Positions 21,101 through 24,100 of a stretch of 64,000 bases of DNA are shown in pieces. The DNA lies in NCBI RefSeq assembly GCF_003334305.1, contig NZ_QOWS01000025.1; one strand, 5' to 3'. This DNA comes from Escherichia coli. Lineage in GTDB: Bacteria; Pseudomonadota; Gammaproteobacteria; Enterobacterales; Enterobacteriaceae. The number at the start of each line of letters is the position of its first letter. Within the stretch, counting starts at the first letter, position 1. The position numbers are program-made.

Positions 21101-24100
21101 CATAATCACGCCAGGCGACAGCGACCGGTCGAACAATATACGGGTCTAATACGTTGAAGTTGAAGTTGTACATGGTGCGGTTGAACCCTTCTAACGGGTC
21201 AGAACGCCCTTGCTGATCTGTACCGGAACTCGCACACCCCACCAGAAGCGTAGTTCCCAGAGCAAGCGCCGACAGGCGAAGCTTCATAAATGTCTCCCTG
21301 TTTTTTTTATGGCTTATGCAGTTTGCCATCCATGACGGAACGATACCGTATCCGCCTGTTTAGGTGTGGGCGATTGTAACAGCACGTCAACTGATGTCCA
21401 GACGCCCTGATTTGCTGATTTGATCATAGCCTGGTAATCGCCGCCCTGTAGGCTACTTGATTCTATAGAAACAGAAAAAGGCAAACGCAGCCTTTTCTAC
21501 ATTTTCAGAGTAACTCCCGCCAGTTGCGAGCAAAAAAGCCGCTACGCTTTAGCTATACGTGCTAATTCAAGAGAAGAGACCATGGACAACGACAAAATTG
21601 ATCAACACAGCGACGAAATTGAAGTTGAGAGCGAAGAAAAAGAGCGCGGCAAAAAAATAGAAATAGATGAAGACCGACTCCCCTCCCGGGCGATGGCAAT
21701 TCATGAGCATATCCGCCAGGATGGTGAAAAAGAGCTGGAACGCGACGCAATGGCGCTACTGTGGTCAGCCATTGCGGCGGGTCTGTCGATGGGCGCTTCG
21801 TTACTGGCAAAAGGGATATTTCATGTCGAACTGGAAGGTGTGCCGGGCAGCTTCTTACTGGAGAATCTCGGTTATACCTTTGGTTTTATTATCGTCATTA
21901 TGGCCCGCCAGCAATTATTTACCGAAAACACCGTGACTGCGGTACTACCCGTCATGCAAAAACCGACAATGAGCAACGTCGGCTTACTTATGCGATTATG
22001 GGGCGTCGTGCTGCTGGGTAATATTCTCGGGACAGGTATTGCTGCATGGGCATTTGAATATATGCCTATCTTCAATGAAGAAACTCGCGATGCATTTGTC
22101 AAAATCGGCATGGATGTGATGAAGAACACCCCCAGCGAGATGTTTGCCAACGCGATCATTTCCGGCTGGCTGATCGCCACTATGGTATGGATGTTTCCTG
22201 CAGCAGGTGCGGCAAAGATTGTGGTGATTATATTGATGACCTGGCTTATTGCCCTGGGTGACACCACCCATATCGTGGTCGGTTCTGTTGAAATCCTCTA
22301 TCTGGTGTTTAACGGTACGCTGCACTGGAGCGATTTCATCTGGCCCTTCGCACTACCTACTTTAGCGGGGAACATCTGCGGCGGCACCTTTATCTTCGCG
22401 TTAATGAGTCATGCACAGATTCGTAACGACATGAGCAACAAGCGTAAAGCAGAAGCACGCCAAAAAGCAGAACGTGCGGAAAACATTAAGAAAAATGATA
22501 AAAACCCGGCATAAATGGCGAGGGTTTAAGCAATCGAGCGGCAGCGTACTTACCCCGCACTCCATTAGCGGGTATACTCATGCCGCATTGTCCTCTTAGT
22601 TAAATGGATATAACGAGCCCCTCCTAAGGGCTAATTGCAGGTTCGATTCCTGCAGGGGACACCAGATACCCTTCAAACGAAATCTACCTTCACCCCGTAA
22701 AAGATGGGTTTGGCAGCACACTTGCCTTATATCTACTCATTTTTACTGCAACAGGTTGAAATCTCAGCACTGTCAGAAAGCGCTGATGACTAAACAGCCC
22801 TGGGCCGGGCGATGTAACCATCACACAGAATCCTGATAGCGAAATATGGCGTGACTCGATACTTCACTCCGCAATGCATTCCTTGATGAATTCGCAGGAC
22901 CGTGATACACGGGACAGGTCACTGAATGACGACAATGTCCTGGAAATCAGCGAACCGCGCATCTGAAGTACATTTGAGCGACTGTACCAGAACATGAATG
23001 AGGCGTTTGGATTAGGCGATTATTAGCAGGGCTAAGCATTTTACTATTATTATTTTCCGGTTGAGGGATATAGAGCTATCGACAACAACCGGAAAAAGTT
23101 TACGTCTATATTGCTGAAGGTACAGGCGTTTCCATAACTATTTGCTCGCGTTTTTTACTCAAGAAGAAAATGCCAAATAGCAACATCAGGCAGACAATAC
23201 CCGAAATTGCGAAGAAAACTGTCTGGTAGCCTGCGTGGTCAAAGAGTATCCCAGTCGGCGTTGAAAGCAGCACAATCCCAAGCGAACTGGCAATTTGAAA
23301 ACCAATCAGAAAGATCGTCGACGACAGGCGCTTATCAAAGTTTGCCACGCTGTATTTGAAGACGGATATGACACAAAGTGGAACCTCAATGGCATGTAAC
23401 AACTTCACTAATGAAATAATCCAGGGGTTAACGAACAGCGCGCAGGAAAGGATACGCAACGCCATAATCACAACTCCGATAAGTAATGCATTTTTTGGCC
23501 CTACCCGATTCACAAAGAAAGGAATAATCGCCATGCACAGCGCTTCGAGTACCACCTGGAATGAGTTGAGATAACCATACAGGCGCGTTCCTACATCGTG
23601 TGATTCGAATAAACCTGAATAAAAGACAGGAAAAAGTTGTTGATCAAAAATGTTATAGAAAGACCACGTCCCCACAATAAATATGACGAAAACCCAGAAG
23701 TTTCGATCCTTGAAAACTGCGATAAAATCCTCTTTTTTTACCCCTCCCGCATCTGCCGCTACGCACTGGTGATCCTTATCTTTAAAACGCATGTTGATCA
23801 TCATAAATACAGCGCCAAATAGCGAGACCAACCAGAAGTTGATATGGGGACTGATACTAAAAAATATGCCGGCAAAGAACGCGCCAATAGCATAGCCAAA
23901 AGATCCCCAGGCGCGCGCTGTTCCATATTCGAAATGAAAATTTCGCGCCATTTTTTCGGTGAAGCTATCAAGCAAACCGCATCCCGCCAGATACCCCAAG
24001 CCAAAAAATAGCGCCCCCAGAATTAGACCTACAGAAAAATTGCTTTGCAGTAACGGTTCATAAACGTAAATCATAAACGGTCCGGTCAAGACCAGGATGA

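Follow-up and report, generated by a model that had tools for sequence, protein, structure and literature searches.

We analysed a 64-kb stretch of the Escherichia coli chromosome (contig NZ_QOWS01000025.1; "the window" refers to this whole stretch) and focused on a short orphan interval beside its single transfer RNA (tRNA) gene, argW, which was located with ARAGORN and in agreement with the Rfam tRNA model (63.4 bits). Between argW and the stop codon of the sucrose permease gene cscB (23106-23108) lie 441 bp, 22665-23105, which we call the segment. The surrounding genes, in the order fadL, yfdF, mlaA, yfdC, argW, cscB, cscK, cscA, cscR, 'dsdX, dsdA, emrYK and evgAS, are ordinary chromosome, and the layout of yfdC, argW, cscB, cscK, cscA, cscR, truncated dsdX and dsdA is the same as in the published argW-dsdCXA/csc locus. 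In E. coli, argW is a recognised hotspot where DNA recombines and prophages integrate, and csc there takes the place of dsdC and the 5' portion of dsdX (PMC11251922, PMC3032704, PMC4366372). The variable argW-dsdCXA/csc locus is credited to Jahreis et al. 2002 and Moritz & Welch 2006, as cited in these three papers, which leave the DNA between argW and cscB undescribed and make no mention of a DUF4942 relic.

A preliminary description of the window had pointed to this interval as lacking any open reading frame (ORF) of at least 60 amino acids (aa), an integrase and a direct repeat of the argW 3' end, and had proposed either a decayed island junction or an unannotated small RNA (sRNA) or small protein. 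The absence of ORFs of 60 aa or more in 22665-23105, and hence of an integrase gene there, was borne out, the next gene being cscB. The further statement that only ORFs of 30 aa or less occur was slightly off, since the longest are of 44 aa (22690-22824, minus strand), 43 aa (22864-22995, minus strand) and 33 aa; an ORF of 30 aa at 22874-22966 on the plus strand is the one sometimes labelled DUF4942 by the Prokaryotic Genome Annotation Pipeline (PGAP). The missing repeat was likewise confirmed: the 23-mer at the argW 3' end has no second copy in the window with up to 3 mismatches allowed, and no shorter or degenerate copy with at least 16/23 matches is found in 22665-28600, from the segment to the truncated 'dsdX. 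The segment is a mosaic composed of a 66-bp left piece, a relic of a DUF4942 gene, a junction zone and a hairpin of the csc module (Table 1).

Table 1. Features in and next to the interval between argW and cscB.
Feature	Coordinates	Strand	Basis or remark
argW, tRNA-Arg(CCU)	22590-22664	+	ARAGORN, Rfam
Left piece, 66 bp, adjoining the tRNA directly	22665-22730		single copy, only in segment carriers
DUF4942 relic, piece 1 (aa ~38-65 of 281)	22731-22814	+	blastn, tblastn
DUF4942 relic, piece 2 (aa 76-151), other frame	22790-23017	+	tblastn, blastn, Pfam
Relic/csc junction zone	23018-23053		homology with other csc loci stops inside
cscB hairpin, directly 3' of the cscB stop	23054-23098	-	folding, cross-genus conservation
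cscB (sucrose permease), right-hand neighbour of the segment	23106-24353	-	415-aa ORF

A DUF4942 pseudogene fragment beside argW

About 290 of the 441 bp are an internal pseudogene fragment of a DUF4942 gene, and not a member gene of that family. Sensitive blastn searches matched window positions ~22731-23009 to intact DUF4942 genes of more than 1,300 other genomes at 73-77% nucleotide (nt) identity. With the intact 281-aa copy of genome L006 as the reference, the relic resolves into two pieces in different frames. Piece 1 matches the intact gene at 65/88 positions by blastn (74%) and at 13/28 residues by tblastn, and carries an in-frame TAA at 22791-22793 that is common to all six aligned E. 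coli lineages. Piece 2 matches at 38/76 aa by tblastn (50%, E 6e-19) and at 155/203 positions by blastn (76%), and carries an in-frame TGA at 22964-22966 that is private to the lineage of the window, the others having CGG. A frameshifting deletion of ~55 nt, flanked in the intact gene by the short repeats GGCGATGAAAC / GGCAATGAAAG, separates the pieces and, like the TAA, is common to all aligned lineages. The frame of the relic ends ...GLGDY* at a TAG (23024-23026). The relic lacks a start codon, the N-terminal ~37 codons and the last ~130, and no intact ORF of ~280 aa with a start and the full domain is present; the repaired conceptual translation matches Pfam DUF4942 (PF13708) with an i-E of 3.8e-9, over model positions 5-62 of 190 only. 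The continuation of DUF4942 homology into 23005-23053 was considered and rejected, as 71/500 shuffles scored equally well, and the zone 23018-23053 has no significant similarity to the DUF4942 gene.

In RefSeq the segment is labelled inconsistently, with no feature, with a DUF4942 partial pseudogene (equivalent to window positions 22874-22963) or with a coding sequence of 50-60 aa called by PGAP. No intact parent allele was found among 5.8 billion protein clusters, in a search that needs shared 5-residue words and that very diverged parents could therefore escape. All matches of at least 78% identity among the clusters were ORFs of 54-153 aa, the named ones being E. coli DUF4942 fragments, and the seven that were inspected all came from this same locus. 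The longer database ORFs read in from the side of the prophage and its right attachment site (attR), and all variants end at GLGDY. NCBIfam returned no family match for the intact DUF4942 protein or the fragment, and PHROGs gave families of unknown function together with a partial match to a "DNA methyltransferase" phrog, which leaves the ancestral gene without an assignable function.

Intact DUF4942 genes are the last genes of CP4-type islands, as judged from two intact examples, in which the gene order is GTPase, Ag43, DUF932, antirestriction, RadC/JAB, DUF987, YeeU/CbeA antitoxin, CbtA toxin, DUF5983, DUF957 and DUF4942, and the DUF4942 gene ends 98-150 bp from a tRNA gene. With CP4-6/CP4-44/CP4-57-like islands the relic shares the nucleotide identity given above, the N-terminal third of the Pfam domain and a tRNA-adjacent position, the segment starting one base after the last base of a tRNA gene. 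Unlike those islands, it keeps only aa ~38-151 of 281, frameshifted and with two stops, and the argW locus has no integrase, no distal attR repeat and none of the cargo genes (Ag43, antirestriction, RadC, YeeU/CbtA), the DUF4942 fragment being the only island gene represented. The segment is thus at most the relic of an island of the CP4/P4-integrase type and not an island.

The two ends of the segment and their distribution

The homology shared with K-12 extends to precisely the last base of argW (22664) and no further, and the K-12 DNA that follows attR (pawZ) is unrelated to the segment. The argW 3' end, 22642-22664, with a 15-nt core at 22650-22664 (CTGCAGGGGACACCA), is the attachment (att) core that is duplicated as attR where an element occupies the site. 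In strain 114, 8.5 kb with an IntS-type prophage remnant lie between argW and attR, and strain YL3 has the same recombinase-bearing right end and attR. Genome L013, which is labelled E. coli but represents a separate species (~90% nt identity in csc), shows the torI end of a KpLE1-like prophage, attR (CTGCAGGGGACACCA), a diverged segment and the cscB hairpin, in this order. In all three genomes attR, a partial copy of the argW 3' end, abuts the base equivalent to 22665 directly. The attR reads TTCGATTCCTGCAGGG(G)ACACCA in strains 114 and YL3 and CTGCAGGGGACACCA in K-12 (pawZ) and L013, and a duplication of argW is annotated in many records of Shiga toxin (Stx) 2a phages.

The boundary 22664|22665 is the crossover point of argW-integrating prophages, with insertion at the tRNA end and the core duplicated as attL and attR, and the window holds this attB unoccupied. 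As in the attB used by argW prophages (CPS-53/KpLE1 of the IntS type, P22-like and short-tailed Stx phages), the tRNA and the att core are intact; in contrast to genomes in which the argW attB is occupied, no element sits at the site in the window, and the segment is bacterial flank and not phage DNA. The left piece is accordingly the chromosomal (non-phage) side of attB for IntS-type and other argW prophages. The K-12 fragment pawZ resembles the relic in being a short, non-functional leftover of integration that is sometimes annotated as a pseudogene; pawZ is, however, a tRNA fragment or att repeat, whereas the relic is a fragment of a protein gene whose att repeat has been lost.

The possibility that the left piece is the 5' region of DUF4942 or an island end, that is, the DNA between a DUF4942 stop and a tRNA, was rejected, as the alignment scores fell inside the shuffle distribution. 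The left piece has a diverged homologue in L013 and contains a weak, poorly conserved hairpin at 22712-22726, with folding z-scores of -0.8 and -1.2, which is broken by indels in genomes L008 and L011. In H165 and H166 (strains SCAID WND1-2022 and OZ040539), the match to the query for the junction of argW with the segment continued for 10 bp past the end of argW (query 1-145, 95% identity) before diverging, which suggests a different element or kind of flank that begins much as the segment does.

The pangenome comparison covered 5,426 complete E. coli genomes. The segment is present at full length, as a single chromosomal copy, in 2,624 of them at 93.7-100% identity, and any match to it occurs in 2,645. 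Searched separately, its two ends were found in the same genome set and nowhere else (left piece in 2,631 genomes, the other end in 2,641). It is coextensive with cscB, which occurs in 2,649 genomes. All 5,426 genomes have argW, and an uninterrupted junction of argW with the segment is found in only 1,446, so that ~45% of the carriers (1,446 intact junctions against ~2,631-2,645 carriers) have an insertion exactly at 22664|22665. A plasmid origin was rejected, as plasmid matches were DUF4942 paralogues at 74-77% identity or mis-binned chromosomes.

Four phage records of 43-47 kb, ON470608.1, ON470622.1, ON470589.1 and ON470594.1, contain argW and/or the relic with cscB at 97-99.9% identity to window positions 22590-23400, and annotate the relic ORFs as "A-kinase anchor protein 5" or hypothetical. 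These are probably the "four coliphage genomes" with csc that are mentioned in PMC11251922. The shared DNA looks like host flank in prophage-derived records or the product of packaging resembling specialised transduction, and the annotation looks spurious.

At the other end, the hairpin has an 11-bp stem (UUUUUCCGGUUG / CAACCGGAAAA) and a 24-nt loop, with a predicted stability of -19.9 kcal/mol (z = -3.1), which was reached by 0/200 shuffles. Its core stem is invariant and its loop variable across the E. coli lineages, L013 and two Citrobacter amalonaticus genomes, in which the loop carries a 3-nt insertion. Because the stem is conserved beyond the cscB stop in other csc loci, the hairpin belongs to the csc module, and it probably ends or stabilises the cscB transcript; its 3' arm is followed by AUAAUAAUAG, with no U-run, and it was not called by a consensus terminator scan.

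A scan for CscB with one genome per species recovered csc loci from two C. amalonaticus lineages (80-83% nt identity) and two divergent Escherichia (90% and 95%). Their homology with the window extends from ~28033-28244 through cscR, cscA, cscK and cscB and past the cscB stop to 23038-23073, ending at 23050 and 23038 in C. amalonaticus and at 23053 in L013. No tRNA and no DUF4942 match (tblastn) was found at these loci, the short diverged relic of L013 being detected only by global alignment. In the C. amalonaticus genome L014, an ORF of 370 aa begins ~10 bp past the cscB hairpin on the same strand (8310-9422), and no tRNA is nearby; the csc module therefore lies there in a quite different chromosomal context. 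A search for repeats bracketing the module (22665-23110 against 27980-28480) found one 9-mer as the best shared word, with 1.6 expected by chance, and a transposon-like signature was rejected. The right csc junction (28034-28440) has no repeat in common with the left one: the Citrobacter homology stops at ~28033, which is 42 bp upstream of cscR, and ~190 bp of A+T-rich DNA come next, before the truncated dsdX, which RefSeq annotates without its N-terminus.

Sequence evolution of the segment and variation nearby

To place the segment on a scale of constraint, its divergence was compared with that of yfdC, cscB, cscK and cscA in the same five strain pairs. The segment diverges by 2.0-6.4%, against 1.45-4.55% at codon position 3 of these genes and 0.2-0.8% at positions 1 and 2, and it evolves at or above the silent-site rate. 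The length of the ORF within the relic is 30, 50 or 60 aa depending on the strain, because the TGA stop varies between lineages.

Two genomes illustrate how much of the segment can be lost. In L013, where no blastn match at E 1e-5 lies to the left of the hairpin, a global alignment recovered a diverged segment with 81% identity over 267 aligned columns, consisting of the left piece and only aa ~81-118 of DUF4942, with deletions of its own, running straight into the hairpin. Since L013 carries a diverged version of the same segment, the argW-relic-csc arrangement is older than the L013 split, and it has been getting shorter independently in each lineage, as expected for non-functional bacterial DNA. 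Enterotoxigenic E. coli (ETEC) L003 (L7_E1373) keeps only 23027-23105 (79 bp) beside cscB. At the position of the lost DNA, L003 has (3957-5960) an intS fragment and ISEc46, an insertion sequence (IS) of the IS200/IS605 family with TnpA and the TnpB/InsQ RNA-guided endonuclease; this IS-associated deletion ends 26 bp outside the cscB hairpin.

Two further variable positions were seen in the window. The slot between fadL and mlaA, compared in L002-L004, L008, L009 and L021, is a second variable spot: it holds yfdF (19292-20350, 352 aa) in the window, whereas other strains have hypothetical proteins of a different kind there (343, 422 and 430 aa), strain DS566 has nothing, and an IS66-family element interrupts yfdF in strain 120899. 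Between cscK and cscA, at ~25393-25397, an A-run is longer by one A in the window (CGCAAAAATCG) than in every other sequence compared, all of which have CGCAAAATCG (six E. coli strains, the divergent Escherichia L013 and C. amalonaticus). The extra A falls within the divergent csc promoter/operator region and may reflect either true regulatory variation or a sequencing error in the homopolymer.

Origin of the segment

We consider it highly likely that the segment is functionless fossil DNA, the last trace of a CP4-type island that once stood at argW and that now adjoins the csc sucrose module at the module's 3' end. The suggestion of a decayed island junction in the preliminary description thereby gains good support from the ~290-bp pseudogene fragment, the K-12 break at the end of argW and the prophages that insert at the same base. 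The history that we reconstruct from sequence comparison would begin with the integration of an island at the argW 3' end, with the integrase proximal and DUF4942 distal and reading away from argW. An internal deletion would then have joined the first ~66 bp of the island to DUF4942 codon ~38. The replacement of dsdC and the 5' part of dsdX by cscRAKB would have removed the 3' half of DUF4942, attR and the original flank, and the argW-relic-csc haplotype would since have been passed on as a unit while small deletions and point mutations slowly wore it down. No argW direct repeat would be left because the event that installed csc removed attR. Four observations would follow from such a history: K-12 homology that breaks off exactly where the tRNA ends, the lack of a direct repeat, the lack of an integrase and the close linkage with csc.

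Several observations weigh against this reading. The island itself was not observed: no integrase, attR or other island gene is present at the locus, and no intact island starting with the 66-bp left piece was found in the E. coli genome set. The left piece (22665-22730) and the zone 23018-23053 found no source by similarity to DUF4942 genes or island ends. The relic reads away from argW, whereas both intact DUF4942 examples read towards their tRNA, and no example with the orientation required by the island model was retrieved; CP4-57 at ssrA presumably has DUF4942 in that orientation. Finally, the perfect linkage of relic and csc is equally compatible with the relic having arrived together with csc.

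This last point leads to an alternative, in which the relic, and perhaps also the left piece, never belonged to an island at argW but is donor flank that came in with csc when dsdC and the 5' portion of dsdX were replaced in one step. In its favour, the relic has the same distribution as cscB (2,645 against 2,649 genomes), with the end pieces of the relic nowhere else in E. coli; the K-12 haplotype breaks exactly at the end of argW, so that 22665 to 'dsdX behaves as one replaced block; the relic already stood beside the csc hairpin in the common ancestor with L013; and no attR or integrase is left to tie it to argW. Outside Escherichia, however, csc loci were recovered only from the two C. amalonaticus lineages, and there the homology stops 55-68 bp beyond the cscB stop codon, with no DUF4942 sequence nearby. 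DUF4942 is also typically the terminal gene of tRNA-associated islands, which fits the tRNA-adjacent site, and the csc module is not flanked by the repeats that a larger transposed unit would suggest. We therefore regard import together with csc as unlikely, though it deserves more weight than any account of the segment as functional or untranslated DNA.

A functional product, either a small protein from the DUF4942-derived ORF of 30-60 aa or a transcript antisense to the 3' end of cscB, is very improbable in our judgement. PGAP does call a coding sequence of 50-60 aa in some genomes, and the segment contains a promoter-like hexamer pair at 23023-23050 and, at 22712-22726, the left-piece hairpin, which is weakly terminator-like, both on the plus strand. 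The counts from the promoter and terminator scan are, however, at or below shuffle expectation; in Rfam 15 only the tRNA reaches threshold, with nothing inside 22665-23105 even at E up to 10; and the whole segment folds no better than shuffles (z -0.66 and -1.46). Its divergence exceeds that of the silent sites of its neighbours, the ORF is cut to 30 aa by the TGA in the window and has a variable upstream frame, more than half of the segment is deleted in L013 and all but 79 bp are lost in ETEC L003, and no sRNA at the argW-cscB locus is reported in the literature found. The sRNA or small-protein reading offered by the preliminary description thus finds no evidence in these sequence analyses. 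It is just as doubtful that the relic or the relic-hairpin junction has been co-opted, whether as an insulator or terminator shielding cscB and argW from prophage read-through or as the source of a lineage-specific transcript or peptide of 30-60 aa. Scarcely credible is the view that no island was ever involved and that all 441 bp simply serve cscB (or argW/yfdC) as a 3' untranslated or terminator region. The last ~50 bp are indeed a stable hairpin kept with cscB across genera, and the ordinary cscB 3' untranslated region that the preliminary description named as its refuting case holds for the last ~50-80 bp. It does not hold for the rest: conservation with other csc loci stops at 23038-23053, the remaining ~390 bp include the recognisable DUF4942 pseudogene, and the yfdC/argW homology with K-12 ends at 22664, so that this reading is contradicted for 22665-23037.

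Under the interpretation as a fossil of a CP4-type island, the only parts likely to be active today are the att core at the tRNA end, as a target of phage integration, and the cscB hairpin. The relic is an ordinary pseudogene at a well-known hotspot, and some RefSeq annotations already mark it as a partial pseudogene of DUF4942. The loss of attR and most of the island, with csc joined on, would explain how an orphan stretch can come to lie at a tRNA hotspot with neither integrase nor repeats. The left boundary of the csc module (~23038-23053) and the argW attB flank are useful for defining prophage ends and for csc engineering, and the segment provides an example of progressive deletional pseudogene decay in two Escherichia lineages.

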